A stretch of 32,971 bases of DNA from a virus, in the UHGV virus genome UHGV-0159523; one strand, given 5' to 3'. Below, piece after piece: positions 1,532 to 32,806 of this stretch. The stretch's first letter is position 1, and the number at the start of each line of letters is the position of its first letter. The translations under genes were made by a program, and so were the position numbers. Below the pieces are notes generated by a model. The model was not told the origin of the DNA. It was given only the letters and a program-made list of their open reading frames with translations, and did not search any database.

Positions 1532-2904
1532 TGCACTGGCACCTTCAGAGGGATCACCGGCACAAAGCCGGGATGCGTAATGGCATTACGCCGGATAATG
1601 TCCGCGTCACGCGCCGCGTTATCAAACCAGGTAGCCGCCAGCACCAGCGCGGGTAAAACCTCATCCGGTGTGCGCTGAATGATCCGTGCAGACTGTTCAA
1701 GGCGCGTGTTGATATCCGCATTCAGATCTGCTTTCACCCGGCGCAGCGCCAGAAACAGCGCATCACTGGTTGTACGGGACAACTCCTTATCAATTGCCGT
1801 ATTCAGTGTGTCGCGAATGTCAGTCAGTTCTTCCCACGTCGGCAGGTCAACCGTGTTTTTCACCGCCGGTACATTGTTTAGTGCCGGATGCGTGACGGAA
1901 GGCCAGCCAGTGCTCTGCGCGGGTGTTGTTGCCTGCCCCACTGCGGAATTCTGCATCACCGCGGAAATTGTTGGCGCAGGCAATCGGGTGACGGCATACG
2001 CCGCTTCGCTGATTGCGGTCGTACGAAGGGTGCTGGCAACCACGTTACGCTGCTGCGTCGCCGTGGCGGTGGTTTTACTGTCCGTTTTCCAGACGCCGCG
2101 CGGTTGCAGATCGCTGCCGAGGCTGACACCGGAAAGCGTTTTGATCATGGTGACCAGGTCGCTGGCGTTACCATAAAGGCGTTTCCCGGTCCGCCACATT
2201 TTCTGCACCTGCTCAACGAAATTTTTGCCTGACGATGGCGGCGGCAGAAGTACCGAGATATCCCCCTGCAACAGCCTGGCGGCATCCGATACGGCAGAAT
2301 CCACCACTTTCATCGCATCAGAAACATACCCCAGCATCATGCTGGCATTACCGATAACGTCGTTCTGCACGAAATCCGCCACACCATCGATACTGAAACC
2401 GCTGAAGCTGTCACTGATGCAGTCATCCAGTGCAGAACAGGATGACATCAGCGTCTGCGCCGTCGCCGCACCTGATGTGGGGTAAGAGAGTTCTCCTGCT
2501 TCGACAAACTTCAGGTCAAAGCGGACAATACGCCCTTCACTTTTCGATGTGCTGACCCGAACTTCCCCGTCAACACAGACTTTCAGCTCACCATATGTCG
2601 GGTGGACAAGCGTGCCGGGACCGGGTTTATTCAGCGCTTCAATCAGGCGATCGCGCTGGTCAAAGCAGTCATCTCCCACCACATAAGCTGTGATGGACGG
2701 GCGGAAAGTGACTTTTCCCAGATCTTCGGTATAGGGCTTGTCGCGGTTCGGGTATTCATGTGTTTCCACACGGCGACCAGTTCCCGCACTTTCTTCTTCA
2801 ACCTTAAACGGCACGCTGCGAAATGACGCATCCTGAAGCCTGTCTTTCCACGTCATATAAGTCCCATATTTATTATCAGTAGTAATATTTACTGGTAATG
2901 CCAT
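1528..2904 (-). CDS. Mu gpN-like DNA circulation protein (tail module); alternative start at 2856
   Basis: N-terminal motif WKDRLQDASFRSVPFKVEEESAGTGRR typical of the DNA-circulation N-terminal family; the first 16 codons lie in the AT-rich island, so ATG at 2854-2856 (MTWKDRL) may be the true start. Confidence 0.7.
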
Positions 2905-2966
2905 AATTTGTAGTGGTAGCCATTACCATTTGTAACTATATAAATTATTAGCATTAAGGTGATAAC

Positions 2967-3413
2967 ATGAAGAAATTATTAAAATGGATTTTATATATTT
3001 TCATCGGGTTGGTGATTATTGGATATTTTGCAGGCAATAACGATAAAGGCTCTAATTCTTCATACTCATCCGATACGGAAGCTGCGGCACCGCAAAAAGA
3101 AATCTACAACACTACTGCTCGACAGCTGTTTAAAGAGTATGAAGAAAATGAAGTCGCTACCGATGAACAGTTAAAAGGTAAATTAATCGCCGTTAGAGGT
3201 ATCGTACAATCCATTGATAAGGACTTTACTGACTCTATAATTATTAAATTCAGAACTGAAAATGAATTCATGCCAGCAAGAATGGAGATGCAAGACTCTG
3301 AAAAATCAACAGCTGCTGCTCTTAAAAAAGGAGAACAAGTAACTGTTATTTGCGAAAAAATGTCCAGAATTGTCGGCTCCCCATCAGGCCGAAATTGCGT
3401 GTTCGCACAGTAA
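2967..3413 (+). CDS. Moron: N-terminally anchored or secreted small protein with OB-fold-like domain (tRNA_anti-like pattern), 148 aa
   Basis: AT-rich island on the opposite strand inside the tail operon; SD AAGGTGA 4 nt before ATG; N-terminal hydrophobic segment LLKWILYIFIGLVIIGYFA; C-terminal KGKLIAVRGIV...KKGEQVTVICE pattern. Confidence 0.55.
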   Translation: MKKLLKWILYIFIGLVIIGYFAGNNDKGSNSSYSSDTEAAAPQKEIYNTTARQLFKEYEENEVATDEQLKGKLIAVRGIVQSIDKDFTDSIIIKFRTENEFMPARMEMQDSEKSTAAALKKGEQVTVICEKMSRIVGSPSGRNCVFAQ

Positions 3414-13007: not shown

Positions 13008-14741
13008 TTAAAGCGAGCGGATCCCATAGGACTCAATGTGGTCAGACAGCGTGTCTTCTTTCTCGTACAGCATGGCTCTGCCAACCGCCATAATCAGCGC
13101 CACTGCACCATCGATTTTGTTTTCCGCCTGCTCTTTGACGGGCTTCACCACATCATCGTTACCCGGAATGGTTTTGCCGACCACGTTGCCGATACACCAG
13201 GTCATGATGGGATTGCCATCATGATGAAAGCGCCCCGATTCAATTGCCGCTTCCAGCTCTTTCATCGGGTCGGACATGTTGGTGTAGTTCTGAATGATAG
13301 TGATGGGGTTCAGGTCTTCATCAGCAAGGTCATGTGAGAGCCCGGTCGCCCCGAAGGGGTCGATGGGTGACTCGCTGACCGGGCTGATTTTGTTCGCCGC
13401 TTTGGCCTCTTCGAGGATGTAGCGATAATCCACCTCCGCACCATCGGTAACGGTCAGAACGCCCATTTCCACCCATTTCTGAAAGCGTTCGGCTGTCCGT
13501 CGATCTTCATTTTTCTCGACGCTGTACACCGTGTCATACGGTACCCAGAAACGCGGGGCCACACTGTAGTAATGCGTTTTACCGTCAATCTCGCGGGTAT
13601 AAAGTCGCGCCATGCTGTTCATATCCAGCTTACGCGCCAGGTCAAAGGCCAGAATGCACGGCTGCCCCTCGAACTGCTCAAGGGTCAGTGATTTATCCTC
13701 GCAGCTCTGCCAGCTCACCAGATTGAAATACGCCGAACGCGCCGACACCCAGATATTGAGGTGTTTTGTTTTAAAGACGTTTGCCAGACGGGCGTTATTT
13801 TTCGCACGCTGCTGCTGACTTAACAAAAATTCGCGATAAACCGACACGCCAATATTTGGATTGGCTTTTTCCAGCACCTGCGGGGCGGTCCAGTCGTCAC
13901 CTTCATCAACGGTATAGATGATCCCGAACAGTTCATCGTTAGGCACCGAGCCGTTGAGCATCTCGATGACTTCCCGCCGTTTGTCGTAGCACGGCCCCTC
14001 AATGTTGTACCCGGCGGTAGTGATAGCCCACATCAGTGGCTGACGTCGCGCCCCCATCCCGGTAAGCATCGTGGTGTAAAGCGCATCTGTGGCGTGCTCG
14101 TGATATTCATCCACCACCGCACAGTGGGGTGATGAACCATCACCGGGGTTACCGATCAGCGGTTCAAAACGCGCACCATCCTCCGGACGGTTCATGTTTG
14201 AGGCGTTAACCTCAATCCCGAACGCTTCCGTCAGCATGGGTGTGCGTTTACACATCAGTCTTGCCGGACGAAAGACTTCCCATGCCTGTTTCTCTGTCGT
14301 GGCACCGGAATACACTTCCGCGCCGAACTCGTTATCACAGGCAAAACAATACAGGGCGACACCGGCAGAGATTGCCGATTTGCCGTTCTTACGGGGGATT
14401 TCGGTATACACCTCACGGAAGCGGCGCAGCCGGGAGCCTTTATTGACCCAGCCAAACGCGCAGCAGATCACAAAGAGCTGCCACGGCTCCAGCGTGATGG
14501 GCATCCTCTTAAATGCCCACTCACCCTTGGTGTGCGGCAACAGCTGAATAAATTTGGCGGCCCGTTCAGCCAGGTCCTTGTCGAAGCGGTAACGAAACGA
14601 CTTACTTTTTTCCGCCATCAGGTCATCAAGATGGCGCTGGCAGGCCTGAATCACAAACTGGCAGGCCACAATCTTTCCGCGCACGACATCACGGGCATAC
14701 TGATTGGCAGCATTTACGTTGGGGTAAGATTTCCGGCTCAT
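13008..14741 (-). CDS. Terminase large subunit, 577 aa
   Basis: Walker-A-like PRKNGKS, size, and position after TerS with 4-nt overlap. Confidence 0.9.
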
Positions 14742-15241
14742 GATTCGATGATTTTCAGAAACGGGTTAGTGGCTTTCTTCTTCCCCGCCAGGCCAATCAG
14801 ACGCTGGCGGCTGCTGGGGTCGAGTCCGAGCATTGCCCCCGTACTGCTCATCTCGGACTCCTGTTCTTTTTTGGCGGTCAGCTCCGGATTTTTGACCATA
14901 CCGCCCATTGCACCGGTGATGGTGTTGCCCTGTCTGGCAATATTTTTCACGGCACGTCGCCAGAACTCGTAGGCCACGCACCACCGCTCAAGCACCGCGA
15001 GGTCAGTCACGCACAGCAGGCCCTGACCGCAGAGTTCTTTGGTTGTCAGCTGCCACATGATCGTGGCGAGAGGGAGATTTTCTTCTGCGAACCACTCCGG
15101 TGGCTCAACACCTTTGATGGGCGTAAAAACAGGTTCATCTTTGTTCAGGGCTCGCTTGCCGGGGTTTCCGGCCAGCGCCTTGCGCGCCGTTGGCTTGGGG
15201 CGACGCCCGGAACGCCCCGCCGTTCCAGCCATATGCGGCAC
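14738..15241 (-). CDS. Terminase small subunit (P27 family), 167 aa
   Basis: GNPGKRALN motif characteristic of P27-family small terminase; adjacent HNH endonuclease. Confidence 0.7.
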
Positions 15242-15357
15242 TCCTGGTTAAATTTCATTTTTCGCGGGTATAAAAAAACGATGGGGCGGGCAGTCCGGAA
15301 GACGTCAGGTCACAGGGATTTGACCCGCCCCTCCCCTCTGGCAGTGGGAACTGGTTC

Positions 15358-15708
15358 TTACTTCAGCCGTTCACGGGCCGTCTTCGCCTTATGACACGGC
15401 CAGCACAGGCTCTGCAGATTACTGTCGGCATCAGAGCCGCCATGCGCTTTAGGGATGATGTGATCAACGGTTTTCGCTTCACGCACCACACCGGCACGCA
15501 GACATAACTGACATAAACCTTTGTCACGTTTCAGCGCACGCGCGCGGATAACGTCCCACTTCGAACCGTAGCCGCGCTGATGACGGGATTGTCCAGGTTT
15601 GTATTGCTTCCAGCCTTCGCTTTTGTGGCTTTCGCAATAACCTGACGGGTCTGTGGTTATAGAGCGGCAGCCGCGAACACGGCAGGCCTTTGGGATTCGT
15701 GGTGGCAT
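15358..15708 (-). CDS. HNH endonuclease (terminase-associated), 116 aa
   Basis: Cys pairs and DHIIPKAHGG...N...LCWPCH motif; location immediately upstream of TerS as in HK97-like cos phages. Confidence 0.8.
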   Translation of the reverse strand: MPPRIPKACRVRGCRSITTDPSGYCESHKSEGWKQYKPGQSRHQRGYGSKWDVIRARALKRDKGLCQLCLRAGVVREAKTVDHIIPKAHGGSDADSNLQSLCWPCHKAKTARERLK

Positions 15709-15919
15709 GGGTGTTCCAAAATAAATAAACGCTAGCGAATTCTAGTAGCTTGAATTGAGTGTGATGGCCAGTACTGAACTTGAATCCGATTCGGTGTCAG
15801 CTTGGTTTTAGGCGATTACGCACAATTTGTTTTCCCTCATCAGACCAGGTTTTTAACCCATCATTATATATATACCCATCACCAAACTACGGCTTCCAGT
15901 AGGTTACTGTGTTTAGCAT

Positions 15920-15947
15920 GAGTATTTTGTGGTATAAGAAAATACTC
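15920..15947 (+). promoter_or_regulatory. Inverted repeat (9-bp arms gagtatttt / aaaatactc) bracketing an extended -10 (TGgTATAAG): candidate promoter/operator of the moron gene
   Basis: Perfect 9-bp arms separated by gtggtataag; TATAAG at 15933-15938 preceded by TGg; about 30 nt upstream of SD GGGAGA and ATG 15968. Confidence 0.4.
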
Positions 15948-15967
15948 AATTCTTGGGAGAAGAAAAC

Positions 15968-16249
15968 ATGCCAAAAATTCAATTTGATGCAAAAAGTGGT
16001 GAAATGAAGGTTGAGGAAGAAATTTCCAAGATCACCATTGATGATAAAGGCTTAGTTAAAGCTGAAGAGTCTGTAGTTAATGGAAATACCGTTAAGTACT
16101 TTGAGTATGAAAATGGTAGCCATATCACTATTACCCAAAAAAACGGATCCTCTGAGATTTCATCTCATAATATCCAGACAACAATAAGCGCTGACCCTGA
16201 AAAGCCTGGTTTTGTGACTATGACTTACAGAATGGGGTCAGGTAGCTAA
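15968..16249 (+). CDS. Moron: small hydrophilic protein of unknown function, 93 aa
   Basis: AT-rich island on the opposite strand between lysis and packaging genes; SD GGGAGA 7 nt upstream of ATG; own promoter-like and terminator-like elements. Confidence 0.5.
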   Translation: MPKIQFDAKSGEMKVEEEISKITIDDKGLVKAEESVVNGNTVKYFEYENGSHITITQKNGSSEISSHNIQTTISADPEKPGFVTMTYRMGSGS

Positions 16250-16278
16250 CTTTCATTTCAACAAGAGCGGAAAATCAA

Positions 16279-16312
16279 AGCGGCTCATATTGAGCTGCTT
16301 TTCATTATTTTC
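16279..16312 (+). terminator. Rho-independent terminator-like hairpin after moron gene
   Basis: agcggctca-tat-tgagctgct stem (one G-U) followed by tttcattattttct. Confidence 0.4.
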
Positions 16313-16519
16313 TGCATCCACACTTTCGCAATGGCCGCGATCATGCCCTTGAGACCATGTGTCAGGGGTATCTCGTGAATCCCTCATAACTAACCGGAAG
16401 CTGACTGGCTATCAGCCTAGAGCACCGGTGCGCTTCTTCCCGTTAACCCTCACCAGTGCGCTCTCAGCTTTTTACCTGAAACTGGCTACCAGCAACTTTG
16501 AGTATTCGGGGCAGCGTCA

Positions 16520-16825
16520 TTACTGCTGCATTGACACTACTTGCTGCGGTCTTTCCGCTTTACAGCTTAATGGCCAGCTCCTCTCTGCCTCAATTTTACG
16601 AATATCAGCTTTATCACTATTACAGGCAGCCAGAGCCGACAACAGACTCACATTCAAATCCAAGCTTCCACCGTAGGTCAATGGATCAGGAATAACCGGT
16701 TGCGGGGTTTCAGCGGTCAGGTTCGCCGGTAGTGGTATCACCGGAACTGGCACGTAAACTGTCCGCGTACCGGCGCAACCGGTCAGCAGCGGCAGCAGGC
16801 ACAGGGCGTAGAGCACAATCATCAT
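16520..16825 (-). CDS. Rz1-like o-spanin (lipoprotein), overlapped architecture
   Basis: ORF in an alternate frame inside and extending beyond Rz; MM start at 16825/16822, lipobox LLTGC, Pro-rich mature region VPVPVIPLP...PQPVIPDP. Confidence 0.45.
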   Translation of the reverse strand: MMIVLYALCLLPLLTGCAGTRTVYVPVPVIPLPANLTAETPQPVIPDPLTYGGSLDLNVSLLSALAACNSDKADIRKIEAERSWPLSCKAERPQQVVSMQQ

Positions 16826-17102
16826 CCGCAACAGCCACTTTGATATCTTCCTGGGTTCTCTGTGACTCCAGTGCGATCTGCTGTTTTGCATGTTGATTCG
16901 CCTCCTGAATGATGTTCGTTATTGCCATAGTACGCAGAACATTCGCGGTGATAGCCTCAGTAGAATCAGCTCGCTGTTCCGCAGCGTCAGCACGCTTCTG
17001 CTCCTCCAGAAACTTTCCGTGGTAGTGATTCGCTGACCAGACAAGACCACCAGCAATACAAGCAATAAACGCTAAAATGAGCGCCCAATAACTCATCTTC
17101 AT
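16710..17102 (-). CDS. Rz-like i-spanin, 130 aa
   Basis: N-terminal TM (YWALILAFIACIAGGLVW), charged coiled-coil periplasmic domain; start overlaps endolysin stop. Confidence 0.65.
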   Translation of the reverse strand: MKMSYWALILAFIACIAGGLVWSANHYHGKFLEEQKRADAAEQRADSTEAITANVLRTMAITNIIQEANQHAKQQIALESQRTQEDIKVAVADDDCALRPVPAAAADRLRRYADSLRASSGDTTTGEPDR

Positions 17103-17713
17103 ACCAGCAGCGCCGCCCGCGCCTTGTTGTATCGAACCTTACGATCCTCAATACCGTTCAGACCGCCGTTAATGATGCGCGTAACACGATTAATATCGGC
17201 ACCGTAGACCATGCAACCTTTAGAGGTGTAGAACCATGCAGCTGAGCGCGCGGCCTGTAGCTCCTGTTCCAGTTGTTCAGGTGAAGTCACCAGATCTAAC
17301 TTCAGCGCCGCGCCACAGATGCGATAATTATGGAGGCCAGTGATTTGAATTAATCCTCTACCACGATATTTCCAGCCATCACCTGGTGCTTTGTTACCCA
17401 GTCGGTTGCTATACACCAGATTGGCAATAGCATCCTGACGAGCTGCATGTCCGGATGTTCTGCCAAGGGCATCAGCCTGCTGCTGTGTGATCCTCTTTCC
17501 GAACGTCGCCACAAGCGCAGATGGTGTGTAGTTAAAATTTTCAACTACGGCGCTAAACCCCATCGACTCATGGCCTACCTGAGCGATAAACATTGCCTGA
17601 TCCGCTGGTGCTGTAATGCCGAATTCCTTCATCGCCGCATCAATGTGCGGAAACCAGCGCGCAGCCAGCCCGGCGCTAATACCAGCCGCCTTTTGAAATA
17701 ATTGTTGGTTCAT
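17099..17713 (-). CDS. Endolysin, glycoside hydrolase family 19 (chitinase-like), 204 aa
   Basis: GH19 motifs FIAQVGHES...GNKAPGDGWKYRGRGLIQITG...NY; located between holin and spanin genes. Confidence 0.85.
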   Translation of the reverse strand: MNQQLFQKAAGISAGLAARWFPHIDAAMKEFGITAPADQAMFIAQVGHESMGFSAVVENFNYTPSALVATFGKRITQQQADALGRTSGHAARQDAIANLVYSNRLGNKAPGDGWKYRGRGLIQITGLHNYRICGAALKLDLVTSPEQLEQELQAARSAAWFYTSKGCMVYGADINRVTRIINGGLNGIEDRKVRYNKARAALLV

Positions 17714-18367: not shown

Positions 18368-18415
18368 TAGCCACCTCTTATTGCAGTGAGTCCTCTCAGA
18401 AATAGAAATGAGAGG

Positions 18416-18442
18416 AATAAAAAAGGCCACCATTTGGCAGCC
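18416..18442 (-). terminator. Rho-independent terminator at end of AT-rich cassette (before holin)
   Basis: Minus strand ggctgcc-aaat-ggtggcc hairpin (with G-U pairs) followed by TTTTTTATT. Confidence 0.4.
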
Positions 18443-18475
18443 ATAGAATTGATGTAATTATAACTAATTCATTAA

Positions 18476-19282
18476 CTATTTCTTAATGATGCTATTTAAC
18501 ATTTCTAATGCAAAAAGCAACATGGAGCTAATAAAATACAATATAACCGCACTGGCAATCGCTCCAATTATAGCCTGAACACTCCAGTGAAAGTAATTTT
18601 TACCATTAATAACAAACTTAACACTAGGAAACAAAAAGTCGATAAGCTTAATTATTAATGGAATAGCAAAGCTCCATAAGTTCGAAAACAAAATAAAGAT
18701 ACAAATAAATGATAAAGCAAATGCACCATCGATTGATAGTTTTGGCGCCAGTTTTGAGGCTGTCCATAAGCTAAGCAAAAAGCCAACTGTCACACCTGAA
18801 ATCTGGATACTTAACATAGTCCAAGCTGTTCTAAAAAATCTAAATTTATTTTTGCACTTGTTAAGTAAATCCTGAATCGTAATCCATAACGAGTCAACCC
18901 ACTCATTATCTTCCGATGCTACAATCATTGTGCTGCTATTTGAATTCCTCTCATCAATTCGTAGCTCCATCCAAGATCCATTCATCCTGTTAGACTGTCG
19001 ACTTTGATAAGTTTCAATAGTAAAAATTATTTGATCAATCCTAGTGGCCTGTCTAAAGTATTTCACAAGCTCACCGATAGAATCAACTTTATACCCCTTA
19101 CCATCGAACAAAATAAAAAAAACACATTGAGCACAAACTTCCCTACTTTCCTTTTGAGCTTGCTCATTCATTTTAACGCAGCGTTCGACAATTGCCGTGC
19201 TTAAGCTAATCAAGCTATCTTCATTTATAGAAACACCTGAAATATTCTTGCTTCTGTAAAAATATGACACTTTCGATTCCAC
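18476..19282 (-). CDS. Moron: membrane protein with about 155-aa N-terminal soluble domain and three C-terminal TM helices, 268 aa (GTG start)
   Basis: Long ORF in strongly AT-rich DNA; hydrophobic segments near residues 160-185, 195-227, 240-265; no in-frame upstream ATG before a stop, so GTG at 19282. Confidence 0.55.
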   Translation of the reverse strand: MESKVSYFYRSKNISGVSINEDSLISLSTAIVERCVKMNEQAQKESREVCAQCVFFILFDGKGYKVDSIGELVKYFRQATRIDQIIFTIETYQSRQSNRMNGSWMELRIDERNSNSSTMIVASEDNEWVDSLWITIQDLLNKCKNKFRFFRTAWTMLSIQISGVTVGFLLSLWTASKLAPKLSIDGAFALSFICIFILFSNLWSFAIPLIIKLIDFLFPSVKFVINGKNYFHWSVQAIIGAIASAVILYFISSMLLFALEMLNSIIKK

Positions 19283-19447
19283 TCCGCACCAGTCTCGATT
19301 TGGCGCAGGTTAACATAACCACTTCATTGGTAGAAGAAAAGAACTCTTCTTGTCAGAAAGCTACTGTGATATCCCTAAACCTGCAGATGATACAGAACAA
19401 AATTTAAGCATCAATTGTAGGCGATTTTAAATTCACTTTACAGTTTA

Positions 19448-19465
19448 GGCTGCCAATTGGCAGCC
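19448..19465. repeat. Perfect 18-bp palindrome ggctgccaattggcagcc between the two cassette genes
   Basis: Exact reverse-complement symmetry read directly; 15 bp downstream of the 89-aa gene stop; its right half recurs in the cassette terminator at 18425-18442. Confidence 0.6.
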
Positions 19466-19479
19466 GATTGAAGCAGAAA

Positions 19480-19749
19480 TCAATGAGTGCTCATCGATGA
19501 ATTTTTTTCAGCGCCAATCTCACTCAAAAAAGCAAAACCTTTTGACGTTATCTCATTAGCAATCAATCCACCTTCGGCAGATTTGCTTCGTATAACATCG
19601 ATAAAACCTATATCAGCAAGATCTGAAATAGCAAAATTAACCTCTTTTGCTGAGAGATGAGGTAATGATGTAGCCTGAATTCTAGAATCCTTTGGCTGCA
19701 ATTCATTCACTCGACGTAGTATTTCAAGATGGATAGAGGTCAGTTTCAT
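19480..19749 (-). CDS. Moron: small protein with winged-helix-like C-terminus, 89 aa (candidate regulator)
   Basis: Perfect SD AGGAGA 5 nt before ATG; own extended -10 promoter; pattern DLADIGFIDVIRSKSAEGGLIANEITSKGFAFL resembles wHTH wings. Confidence 0.5.
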   Translation of the reverse strand: MKLTSIHLEILRRVNELQPKDSRIQATSLPHLSAKEVNFAISDLADIGFIDVIRSKSAEGGLIANEITSKGFAFLSEIGAEKNSSMSTH

Positions 19750-19785
19750 AATGTTCTCCTGTCTTTAATGTTGTTTTACAGAAAA

Positions 19786-19795
19786 CATTATAACA
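19786..19795 (-). promoter_or_regulatory. Extended -10 promoter element (TGtTATAAT) for the AT-rich cassette
   Basis: Minus-strand TGTTATAATG about 35 nt upstream of the 89-aa gene ATG, just downstream of the tR'-like terminator. Confidence 0.4.
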
Positions 19796-19830
19796 CATTG
19801 ATTTTGATGTAGATTGAATAGAAAAAAACC

Positions 19831-19856
19831 ATAAAAAAACCTCGCAATAGCGAGGT
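19831..19856 (-). terminator. tR'-like rho-independent terminator in the late leader downstream of Q
   Basis: Minus strand acctcgc-tatt-gcgaggt perfect 7-bp stem followed by TTTTTTAT and a second T-run. Confidence 0.5.
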
Positions 19857-19963
19857 CGTAAAAATTGTTCAACGATAGATACACAAGCCCCATCGTTGAG
19901 AAAATCTTATCCATATTTTTTGAGAAACACAAGTATTATGTCGTTATCTTCGGCGAAAATCGC

Positions 19964-25600: not shown

Positions 25601-25864
25601 TTACGCAACTGAACCGCTAACTTTTGAATAGCACTCTGGTAATCCATCATTTGGATTTGGATAAATATCAGGACGCAGCTCATGGGGGGTTACGGACCAG
25701 TTCCCCAGCTCACAAAGTTGTAAAACTCGTTCCGACGGGACTTGATTGTTAATTACCCAATTAGCGACAGATTGAGTAGATTTAAAACCAAAGCGACGAG
25801 CTACTTCAGATAAAGACTTTCCCGCAGCCTTTACTGCTTTCTCGGTGTAGTTTTGAGATGACAT
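25601..25864 (-). CDS. Cro-like HTH repressor, 87 aa
   Basis: HTH KSLSEVARRFGFKSTQSVANWV; SD AGGAG; divergent from CI across a short operator region. Confidence 0.65.
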   Translation of the reverse strand: MSSQNYTEKAVKAAGKSLSEVARRFGFKSTQSVANWVINNQVPSERVLQLCELGNWSVTPHELRPDIYPNPNDGLPECYSKVSGSVA

Positions 25865-25896
25865 ATCTTTCTCCTCTGAAATCCAGAGGGGATAAT

Positions 25897-25934
25897 GCTA
25901 CTTAAAGTAGCGAATTGCAACTACTTAAAATAGA
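25897..25934. promoter_or_regulatory. OR-like operators: two copies of a 15-bp palindrome (gctacttaaagtagc and actacttaaaataga)
   Basis: First copy is a perfect odd-length palindrome; second is a near copy 23 bp away centre to centre; both lie in the 71-bp gap between divergent cro-like and cI starts. Confidence 0.55.
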
Positions 25935-25935
25935 A

Positions 25936-26676
25936 ATGACGAGCGTATGTGATGTGAGTAATCTTCTACCTATGGTAGAAGAACAGAAGTATCCAGATTT
26001 CGCCAAGAGACTAAACGAGTTAATGACAAACAAGGGAATTTCTGTCACCCAACTCAAAAGTCTTGTTGGCGTTACATATGAAATGGCGCGGCGATACACA
26101 ATCGGCGCAGCGAAGCCTCGTGCCTCTGTCATGAATAAACTTGCGTTGGCTCTGGGGGTATCGGCTTCATATTTAGAATATGGTGTTGGCGAGAGAGAAG
26201 GATGTAAGGAAATGGCAAGCATCCCCAATCCAACAAAACCCGACGTATACAGGATAGAAGTTTTAGATCTTAGCGTTAGCGCAGGACCTGGAACCTATAT
26301 GCTTTCAGACTATGTTGATGTGCTCTACGCCATTGAGTTCACAACAGAACATGCCCGTTCTCTTTTCGGTAACCGTTCTCAGGATGATATTAAGGTTATG
26401 ACTGTAAATGGCGATAGTATGTCCCCTACTCTCGTTTCCGGAGATCGACTGTTTGTCGACATTTCTGTTCGTCACTTCCAGACTGATGGAATTTACTCTT
26501 TCGTTTACGGTAAGACTTTTCATGTTAAACGTCTTCAAATGCAAGGTGACAAGCTAGCCGTTCTTTCGGATAACCCTGCCTATGAGAAATGGTACATCGA
26601 TGAAAAATCGCAGGATCAGCTTTATGTAATGGGCAAGGCGTTGATTCATGAGTCAATAAAATACAATCGGTTATAG
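25936..26676 (+). CDS. CI-like prophage repressor with C-terminal S24 (LexA-like) peptidase domain
   Basis: N-terminal HTH (FAKRLNELMTNKGISVTQLKSLVGVTYEMARRY); C-terminal VNGDSMSPTL and FHVKRL Ser/Lys dyad; ATG at 25936 may be leaderless, TTG at 25915 is the track start. Confidence 0.85.
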   Translation: MTSVCDVSNLLPMVEEQKYPDFAKRLNELMTNKGISVTQLKSLVGVTYEMARRYTIGAAKPRASVMNKLALALGVSASYLEYGVGEREGCKEMASIPNPTKPDVYRIEVLDLSVSAGPGTYMLSDYVDVLYAIEFTTEHARSLFGNRSQDDIKVMTVNGDSMSPTLVSGDRLFVDISVRHFQTDGIYSFVYGKTFHVKRLQMQGDKLAVLSDNPAYEKWYIDEKSQDQLYVMGKALIHESIKYNRL

Positions 26677-31326: not shown

Positions 31327-31676
31327 TGGAGCCATACAGCCTCACACTCGATGAGGCCTGTCATTTTCTCAAGATATCCAGACCGACTGCCATTAACTGG
31401 ATACGCACAGGGCGTCTTCAGGCAACACGCAAAGATCCCACTAAGAATAAATCTCCTTACCTCACAACACGACAAGCCTGCATTGCGGCTCTTCAGTCTC
31501 CGCTGCATACTGTCCAGGTGAGCGCGGGTGATGGCATAACAGAGGAAAGAAAATGTCACTCTTCCGCAGAGGTGAAATATGGTACGCCAGTTTCACATTG
31601 CCGAACGGTAAAAGATTTAAACAGTCTCTTGGAACAAAGGACAAAAGGCAGGCGACAGAACTCCATGACAAGCTAA
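31326..31676 (+). CDS. xis: Excisionase (AlpA/MerR-type HTH), 116 aa
   Basis: SD AGAGGTG; N-terminal [35 protein letters not shown]-binding motif; immediately upstream of and overlapping int. Confidence 0.7.
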
Positions 31677-32716
31677 AGGCTGAAGCATGGCGGGTCAGCA
31701 AACTTGGTGAAATACCTGATATAACGTTCGAGGAAGCGTGTGTCAGGTGGCTTGAAGAGAAAGCACATAAAAAATCACTGGACGATGACAAAAGCCGGAT
31801 CGGATTCTGGCTTCAACATTTCGCAGGAATGCAACTAAGAGACATTACTGAATCAAAAATTTATTCAGCAATGCAGAAAATGACGAACCGGCGTCATGAG
31901 GAAAACTGGAAACTCAGGGCAGAAGCATGCAGAAAAAAAGGGAAACCTGTTCCAGAATACACGCCAAAACCAGCGTCCGTTGCAACGAAGGCTACGCATC
32001 TTTCATTTATAAAGGCCCTACTAAGAGCCGCAGAGCGTGAATGGAAAATGCTGGATAAGGCACCAATTATTAAAGTGCCCCAATCAAAGAATAAACGGAT
32101 CCGCTGGCTGGAGCCCCATGAAGCACAAAGGCTGATTGATGAATGTCCGGAACCATTAAAGTCTGTTGTTGAATTTGCACTGGCAACAGGCCTAAGACGC
32201 TCGAACATCATCAACCTTGAATGGCAACAAATAGATATGCAGCGCCGGGTGGCATGGATAAACCCGGAAGAGAGTAAATCAAACCGCGCAATTGGCGTTG
32301 CGCTGAATGATACTGCATGTCGCGTATTGAAAAAACAAATCGGGAATCATCACCGTTGGGTATTTGTGTACAAGGAAAGCTGTACCAAACCAGACGGAAC
32401 GAAAGCGCCAACAGTCAGGAAGATGCGGTATGACGCAAACACAGCCTGGAAAGCGGCGCTGAGACGGGCTGGTATTGATGATTTTAGATTTCACGACTTG
32501 AGACACACCTGGGCAAGTTGGCTGGTTCAAGCCGGAGTCCCGTTGTCAGTGTTACAGGAAATGGGAGGCTGGGAGTCTATCGAAATGGTTCGTCGATATG
32601 CTCACCTTGCACCTAATCACCTTACCGAACACGCACGGCAAATAGACTCGATCCTAAACCCATCGGTCCCAAATTTGTCCCAGTCAAAAAATAAGGAAGG
32701 TACTAATGATGTGTAA
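31553..32716 (+). CDS. int: Tyrosine integrase (phage-type site-specific recombinase), 387 aa
   Basis: N-terminal [21 protein letters not shown] typical of enterobacterial phage integrases; catalytic HDLRHTW box and RRYAHL tyrosine motif; ends 15 bp from the tRNA 3' end. Confidence 0.9.
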
Positions 32717-32730
32717 CTTATTGATTTAAA

Positions 32731-32806
32731 TGGTGCCGATAATAGGAGTCGAACCTACGACCTTCGCATTACGAATGCGCTGCTCTACCAACTGAGCTAT
32801 ATCGGC
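32731..32806 (-). tRNA. thrW: tRNA-Thr (anticodon CGU), thrW-type; prophage attachment site at its 3' end
   Basis: Reverse complement folds as a 76-nt tRNA ending in CCA with anticodon loop TT-CGT-AA; sequence matches E. coli tRNA-Thr(CGU) as I recall it. Confidence 0.9.

Follow-up and report, generated by a model that had tools for sequence, protein, structure and literature searches.

The lysis/packaging junction

The window analysed here is the whole 32,971-nucleotide stretch of the virus genome UHGV-0159523, a prophage whose late genes lie on the minus strand (window annotation). Two holins come first, followed by a GH19 endolysin (17099–17713), Rz (16710–17102), LysC/Rz1 (16520–16891, overlapping Rz), an HNH endonuclease (15358–15708), TerS (14738–15241) and TerL (13008–14741), with HK97-type head genes next. 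Megablast placed the prophage in the SfV/SfI/SfII/SfIV/ST64B group of SfV-like phages, whose heads are of the HK97 type and whose tails are Mu-like. In the same comparison, SfI, SfII and SfIV have their genome ends at approximately 15282–15346 of the window, so the cos site lies between TerS and the HNH gene.

Between HNH and LysC, on the plus strand and thus antisense to the late operon, is an open reading frame (ORF) of 93 aa that runs from an ATG at 15968 to a stop at 16249 (ORF call). Its start codon is preceded by a Shine-Dalgarno sequence read from the DNA (GGGAG, 15955–15959, 8 nt before the ATG), and further expression signals lie on both sides: an extended −10-like element inside a palindrome upstream, and an intrinsic terminator downstream. 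The island that holds these features (15700–16300) has a GC content of 0.33–0.42 (the lowest value computed was 0.335), versus 0.49–0.59 in the HNH/terminase and lysis flanks. A sequence-only reading of this DNA had described a hydrophilic 93-aa protein gene in an AT-rich island, opposite the late operon and between Rz/Rz1 and the HNH/terminase genes, with an extended −10 element before it and an intrinsic terminator at its end. Coordinates, base composition, computed hydropathy (GRAVY −0.63) and the signals set out below confirm that description.

The gene and its signals occupy a cassette of approximately 610 bp (15709–16317, plus strand), which extends from the HNH start codon to a block common to other prophages and is missing from otherwise syntenic relatives. 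We used BLAST, with 15300–16900 as the query, to compare its edges with phages SKA5 and 118970_sal3, the prophages of strains C3728, a7 and SCU-301, and a Citrobacter-type relative, L017. On the left, similarity stopped at the HNH start codon (15708) in every relative compared. On the right, the edge is near 16315: three E. coli prophages match the window again from 16315/16318 onwards, L017 from 16351, and SKA5 and 118970_sal3 from approximately 16600. We also considered the 200-bp conserved block at 16316–16520 as a structured RNA and found no signal (fold z-scores of 0.16 and −1.29), and Rfam gave no RNA family match in 15200–16900.

The slot defined by these edges carries different cargo in different phages: a GrlR-like 106-aa gene in SKA5, an S1 peptidase in strain C3728, a 131-aa plus-strand ORF in strain a7 and three hypothetical genes in strain SCU-301. 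Between Rz and HNH, the ST64B reference genome has sb54 and sb55, which are on the late strand, unlike the plus-strand 93-aa gene. The insertion point in the sister prophages is identical to that of the 93-aa cassette (from the HNH start codon to after LysC/Rz), but their proteins are unrelated to the 93-aa protein, and their genes are mostly on the late strand, without a promoter and terminator of their own. Kinship of the 93-aa protein with the SKA5 GrlR-like gene or the a7 131-aa ORF was rejected (hhalign probability <1%). The 93-aa cassette is carried by only 2 of 5,426 complete E. coli genomes, and no GenBank phage record matches it (tblastn and megablast).

The 93-aa gene and its product

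The assembly collection lists the exact 93-aa protein in 527 blocks, and in all eight of the places that were read the ORF lies between HNH and LysC. Intergenic DNA is 99.6–100% identical between the window and all close copies compared. Members of the protein's cluster come from E. coli, Salmonella enterica, Citrobacter freundii and Enterobacter, and there is a variant lineage with 91% protein identity which is mostly from Citrobacter freundii (L017 and L143–L146). This variant lineage is distant enough to compare rates: between L017 and the window, the coding sequence has diverged by 5.0%, versus 14.7% for the upstream and 14.1% for the downstream non-coding DNA, i.e., the coding sequence is approximately three times better kept than its flanks. 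The dN/dS of the same pair is 0.40, and the amino acid replacements are conservative.

One further true homologue was found by a HMMER search of 1.84 billion representatives: P0003, which is 91 aa long and shares 42% identity along its entire length with no internal gaps. Its phage is a different lambdoid with a Terminase_3/Mu_F head module, a GH24 lysozyme and a lambda-type Q. At every locus read except one rearranged contig (L151), the 91-aa gene lies opposite the late strand, between the lysis region and PhageMetallopep/DUF2280/TerL. Synonymous sites are saturated between the window and L014, a member of the 91-aa lineage (pS 0.89, with pN 0.38). Each of the three lineages has a Shine-Dalgarno sequence of its own, the equivalents of GGGAG being AGGAG in L017 and AAGGGA in L014, and the predicted 5′ leader in the window is unstructured (fold z = +1.6).

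The remaining HMMER hits were rejected: they are long repeat proteins (FN3, Big_5, Flg_new and similar) in which one beta-hairpin motif, YxYENGxxxTI, occurs many times, so the similarity is local or compositional. A word-indexed search of 5.8 billion proteins returned near-identical clusters only, and there was no protein relative among the GTDB species representatives.

The lack of a database family match and the very small number of distinct sequence clusters would suit an ORF that is a chance open frame in AT-rich junk, with the island being non-coding filler or the remnant of a gene. We consider this extremely improbable. The dN/dS of 0.40 and the threefold better conservation of the coding sequence effectively refute it, full-length alignment with the 42%-identical homologue needs no indels, that homologue has a Shine-Dalgarno sequence of its own, and the structure model described below is confident. 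The substitution pattern indicates that the 93-aa ORF is a real protein-coding gene under purifying selection, because its coding sequence diverges less than its flanks, its dN/dS is 0.40 and a 42%-identical homologue occupies an equivalent position and orientation in an unrelated phage. The sequence-only reading was to be abandoned if the OR​F proved not to be conserved; it is conserved.

The encoded protein is acidic and hydrophilic (approximately 10.2 kDa, pI 5.1). Its sequence contains no Cys or Trp, no signal peptide and no membrane or hydrophobic segment. AlphaFold (AF2), given an alignment of three sequences, produced a model with nine consecutive beta strands (pLDDT 85, pTM 0.67). The product is therefore predicted to be a cytoplasmic, soluble, all-beta protein, and it has no known family: there was no match above threshold in Pfam, no match in NCBIfam, and sub-threshold best hits in PHROGs (E = 0.059) and PADLOC (E = 0.018). 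A sequence profile search of the PDB likewise gave no match (best E = 1), and Foldseek, for which a weaker first model served as the query, found nothing with E <0.001 in the PDB or BFVD. A literature search for WP_033866617 found no paper. The earlier statement that the function is not recognisable stands after these family, profile and fold searches.

Candidate promoter, palindrome and terminator

The promoter candidate is an extended −10-like element, TGgTATAAG (15930–15938, plus strand), in which the TG is at 15930–15931 and the hexamer TATAAG at 15933–15938. The final base of the hexamer is G, not the near-invariant T. A candidate weak −35, TGTTTA (15910–15915, plus strand), was read from the sequence 17 bp upstream of the −10 and scored with our own position weight matrix (PWM), and it agrees with the −35 consensus at two of six positions; the corresponding hexamer in L017, TTTTTA, is also poor. 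A consensus scan did not call this promoter, and it scored weakly with our PWM, which is a rough one.

Conservation is what makes the element stand out. Three versions of the upstream region exist (E. coli type, Citrobacter type and 91-aa type), and they have the core [A/G]TG[G/C]TATAAGAAAA in common. The window and L017 have identical copies of the 15-nt TGGTATAAGAAAATA, in surroundings that have diverged by 14.7%. Between the window and the 91-aa lineage, GTGsTATAAGAAAA matches at 13 of 14 positions in surroundings that cannot otherwise be aligned, and it does so at the same offset, with 29–31 nt separating the −10 from the start codon (p ~0.0005, 0.05% of shuffles). The 91-aa lineage has a better −35 than the window (TTCACT), a 17-bp spacer and a TATAAG preceded by TG, and this stretch is invariant among its members; the only rival −10 there, TAGCTT, has lost its final T in most members. 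An exact 15-mer scan of the genome collection with TGGTATAAGAAAATA gave chance matches only, in unrelated phyla. On the opposite strand, a promoter-like site at 16331–16304 was rejected, as its 9 of 12 matching positions are within chance expectation and it is not kept in L017.

We infer from this pattern that TGnTATAAG is the best promoter candidate, of the extended −10 type, with transcription starting near 15945, a position placed solely from the usual spacing of approximately 7 nt after the −10. Because the hexamer ends in G and the PWM score is low, the promoter may be weak, silenced or activator-dependent. Taken further, these properties would fit a cassette that is silent in the lysogen, with a weak, H-NS-silenced promoter that fires only under a particular stress or with a phage or host activator, so that the gene would have a lytic or condition-specific role. 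A non-consensus −10 and a poor −35 are what an activator-dependent or silenced promoter would have, and H-NS targets typically have a GC content like the 33–42% of the island. Strong condition-specificity is, moreover, documented for some accessory genes of prophages (PMC7067206). Nevertheless, we regard a cassette silent in the lysogen as unlikely: its orientation, antisense to the late operon, speaks against a late lytic role, and no activator site was identified. Extended −10 promoters are also able to work without a −35.

At the other end of the gene, the intrinsic terminator (16277–16311, plus strand), predicted to be strong, consists of an 11-pair stem (16277–16301) with a 3-nt loop, followed by a T-rich tail. 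As plus-strand RNA it folds at −23.7 kcal/mol (z = −5.5). The fold is weaker as minus-strand RNA (−15.4 kcal/mol) because a G·U pair becomes an A·C mismatch. In L017 the terminator is conserved with a perfect stem, and the 91-aa lineage has a non-homologous 14-pair hairpin with a T run at the equivalent place.

The −10 hexamer lies within a perfect inverted repeat, of which the left arm is TGAGTATTTT (15919–15928), the spacer is GTGGTATAAG (10 bp between the arms) and the right arm is AAAATACTCA (15939–15948), which would span the predicted transcription start. The sequence-only reading had reported a perfect 9-bp repeat (gagtatttt / aaaatactc) bracketing the −10; the repeat is there and is perfect, but its arms are 10 bp, one more than given. 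When the 612-bp island was dinucleotide-shuffled, 1.8% of the shuffles contained a perfect inverted repeat of at least 10 bp with a 3–25 bp spacer, and when the 259-bp upstream region was shuffled, 0.7% did, so a chance origin of the palindrome is unlikely, though not impossible.

The palindrome is less well kept than the −10 core it surrounds, being 10/10 in the E. coli type versus partial or absent in the other lineages. In the Citrobacter lineage it is 9/10: arm position 4 has changed from G:C to A:T on both arms, which is a compensatory change, and L017 has a one-sided break at arm position 2. In the 91-aa lineage there is no inverted repeat at this place, and a tandem AGAAAAA-N3-CTATAA duplication is found instead. 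Absence of the repeat from otherwise identical relatives had been named beforehand as grounds for rejecting its proposed role. The repeat is intact in the 100%-identical copy of the cassette in strain APEC E19025, which lies at 4272380–4273200 of NZ_CP126931, and it is 9/10 in L005 and L020, near-identical metagenome copies in which T15928C breaks the innermost pair.

That proposed role was an operator. A dimeric repressor bound to both arms would occlude the −10 and the start, and the gene would be off until a signal arrived. The position of the repeat, centred on the −10, and its rarity among shuffles suit this idea, as does the retention of 9/10 in an 84%-identical lineage that includes a symmetry-keeping double change from G:C to A:T. 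By our own estimate, however, three substitutions among 20 arm positions would produce one matched pair approximately 10% of the time by chance, and the one-sided breaks in L017 and in L005/L020, together with the loss in the 91-aa lineage, count against a maintained operator. The half-site shows no enrichment in the prophage, where it matches 7 times versus 6.7 expected, and a distance of 20 bp between half-site centres is not usual for a simple helix-turn-helix dimer.

The identity of a putative repressor is a further difficulty. The CI/Cro intergenic operators of the prophage are CTACTTAAAGTAG-type palindromes, and the promoter palindrome is unlike them, so it is not a CI/Cro-type immunity operator. 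The cassette is identical in the window and E19025, but the CI proteins of the two are only 38% identical, with DNA-binding domains that can barely be aligned, and their operator regions differ. An immunity repressor is therefore excluded as the ligand of the palindrome, since the cassette stays the same where CI and its operators do not. No regulator gene lies inside the cassette and no cognate regulator was found. An informal comparison with consensus sites for LexA, CRP, ArgR, Fis, Lrp, IHF and PhoP gave no convincing fit to the palindrome or the −35 region. The earlier claim of an operator and a repressor-controlled gene is thus not supported, and we consider an operator for a regulator other than the immunity repressor unlikely.

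Alternatively, the inverted repeat could act as an RNA hairpin and not as a DNA site, either as a 5′ stabiliser or attenuator of a transcript started upstream or as structure in the antisense late mRNA. In the window the fold is strong (−11 kcal/mol, z = −4.7), and compensatory substitution is the textbook mark of a helix. This explanation is nonetheless very unlikely, as the L017 fold is only −1.3 kcal/mol (z = +0.3), the hairpin is absent from the 91-aa lineage and the left arm would be untranscribed if the conserved −10 is the promoter; neither the consensus scan nor the PWM found a convincing promoter further upstream.

Judged from its distribution among lineages, the palindrome would be at most a lineage-specific regulatory add-on, read by something other than the immunity repressor, and it may have no function. 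Calling it possibly non-functional may undervalue it, because it is statistically unusual and has undergone one compensatory G:C to A:T change.

The cassette as a moron

A “moron” in this context (the Juhala/Hendrix definition) is DNA that is extra relative to related phages, differs in base composition from the phage genes around it, has its own promoter and terminator and is expressed from the repressed prophage (PMC3594210). The cassette fits this definition at the level of sequence because it lies in a variable slot which holds other cargo in sister phages. It is extra DNA with a deviating base composition, and it has its own terminator, by computational prediction only. For its own promoter, the evidence is the TGnTATAAG kept across lineages, but that −10 has G as its last base, it is paired with a poor −35, and it was not called by the consensus scan. 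An accessory moron cassette with its own expression signals, as the sequence-only reading had proposed, is thus supported at this level by the slot, its alternative cargo, selection on the gene, and the kept −10-like motif and terminator. The comparisons support an ordinary single-gene moron with an uncharacterised orphan gene, whose architecture and location are textbook.

The lambda gene bor lies downstream of Rz/Rz1, before the packaging genes and opposite the late operon. The 93-aa gene resembles it by analogy, being a one-gene accessory unit at an equivalent place and on the equivalent strand, with a product in the range of 90–100 aa, and expression from the prophage would be expected here too. 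The proteins differ: Bor carries a signal peptide and a lipobox and is a lipoprotein of the outer membrane, and the 93-aa protein, which has zero Cys, a GRAVY of −0.63, no hydrophobic segment, no Pfam match and no sequence similarity to Bor, is not a member of the Bor/Iss lipoprotein family. Both bor and lom of lambda are expressed from the repressed prophage (PMC7067206, PMC3594210).

Two other genes are useful comparisons. HK97 gene 15, the original moron and a superinfection exclusion gene, fits the same definition as the cassette (PMC3594210), but it lies in the tail operon and encodes a membrane protein, whereas the 93-aa gene is at the lysis/packaging junction and its product is predicted to be soluble. 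STMMW_20121 of Salmonella prophage ST64B runs antisense to the lytic genes and is transcribed on its own in lysogens (PMC7067206). It is a precedent from within the SfV-like group, to which ST64B and the prophage studied here both belong, although we claim no homology between the two genes.

The reading we favour, with a probability of roughly 0.6, is that of a single-gene moron in the variable slot between the lysis cassette and the HNH–cos–terminase region of an SfV/ST64B-like prophage, working as follows. Sigma-70 RNA polymerase would start near 15945 from the extended −10, with no need for a good −35, and the terminator would halt the plus-strand transcript before it ran antisense into LysC/Rz. 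The cassette and the late operon are convergent, so the 93-aa gene would be expressed in the lysogen, like lambda bor, and during lytic growth Q-antiterminated late transcription would overrun the cassette. The AT-rich island probably puts the promoter under H-NS-type silencing or the control of some host regulator. The product would be an acidic and soluble protein of 10 kDa, folded as a beta-meander and lacking a catalytic signature, that most likely binds a host or phage protein, in a role that would benefit the lysogen (e.g., exclusion, defence or anti-defence). Our guess, made solely from context and by analogy with lambda bor, lom and rex and with what is published on morons (PMC3594210, PMC7067206), is that it binds its host or phage partner stoichiometrically, to the advantage of the lysogen.

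A broader proposal is that the 93-aa and 91-aa proteins are the first members of a new family, confined to prophages of Enterobacteriaceae, whose proteins are small, acidic and all-beta. Such genes would travel with their own extended −10 and settle specifically at the lysis/packaging junction of unrelated lambdoid phages, each product being a hitherto unrecognised exclusion, defence or anti-defence effector that binds a host or phage protein, and the palindrome of the 93-aa version would be read by a host factor. We offer this tentatively, as a possibility that we judge to have well under an even chance of being right.

The finding adds an instance and not a principle, since the architecture and location are already familiar. 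It does narrow the regulatory question: the −10 core is kept in all three lineages, whereas the palindrome is lineage-specific and does not depend on the immunity repressor. Prophages keep in their morons the genes that alter their hosts, including those for virulence, exclusion and defence. A compact, well-delimited cassette made up of a gene, a kept promoter core and a terminator, with no recognisable family or fold, would therefore be a reasonable candidate for a phenotype screen.

Non-coding block and LysC

Directly downstream of LysC, in the part of the window that adjoins the moron cassette, lies a non-coding block of ~200 bp (16316-16520), and similarity runs on from it to ~16600, reaching the 3′ end of LysC. 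Seven further E. coli prophages carry this block at ~90% identity; the cargo in their variable slot (the site between the HNH start codon and LysC/Rz1) differs, and one of them has another lysozyme and terminase type. The block is absent from SKA5 and 118970_sal3, two sister phages with other slot cargo. Rfam has no match for it, and its folding scores (z = 0.16 and -1.29) show no signal. Possibly it is the remnant of a gene or serves as a linker for recombination.

The LysC/Rz1 ORF (16520-16891) begins within Rz (16710-17102) and extends ~190 nt past the Rz stop, which is the same type of overlapped arrangement as that of P2 LysB/LysC. The 3′ part of LysC is a portion of the mosaic block common to other prophages, so LysC C-termini differ among relatives.

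Packaging, immunity and integration

In the Shigella phages SfI, SfII and SfIV, the genome ends correspond to ~15282-15346 of the window, so the cos site falls within the 116 bp that separate TerS from the HNH gene (15242-15357), as it does in HNH endonuclease-dependent packaging systems of the HK97 type.

In the immunity region, a YdaS/Cro-like gene (25601-25864, minus strand) and a Peptidase_S24 CI gene (~26002-26676, plus strand) flank an interval (25865-25960) containing the palindromes GCTACTTAAAGTAGC and ACTACTTAAAATAG, plus TCTACCTATGGTAGA. These are probably the operators, and all of them are unrelated to the moron palindrome (the 10-bp inverted repeat around its TGgTATAAG).

Because a tRNA-Thr(CGT) gene (32731-32806) directly adjoins the integrase ORF (31553-32716), the arrangement suggests a thrW-type integration site like that of the SfV family. 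The prophage of APEC strain E19025, which carries an identical cassette, occupies another chromosomal site, adjoining yjjG/rimI. At the opposite end of the window, positions 1-59 partially match the Hfq-binding sRNA isrC (59.7 bits), the match being cut by the window start.

Other accessory loci

A second AT-rich island (18400-19900, GC 0.31-0.39) is flanked by a Q-like antiterminator and holins, and in Stx phages this is where stx sits. It encodes, on the minus strand, a 268-aa ORF (18476-19282) with no Pfam or PADLOC match and an 89-aa ORF (19480-19749) that weakly matches DUF2513; in some prophages that are otherwise almost identical, an 85-aa ORF is found at this location instead.

In the lineage carrying a 91-aa homologue of the moron protein, the promoter region (9952-9984 in L014; also in L147-L151) contains a tandem duplication, AGAAAAAGTGCTATA / AGAAAAAACCTATAA, which yields a second hexamer, a perfect TATAAT, 8 nt downstream of the conserved TATAAG.

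The slot cargo of SKA5 is a 106-aa protein (2794-3114 of its locus, L018; minus strand). It matches the GrlR family, a negative regulator of the T3SS, with E = 6.6e-6 and 26.7 bits, narrowly below the Pfam cut-off of 26.8 bits, and is possibly a phage-borne LEE regulator.
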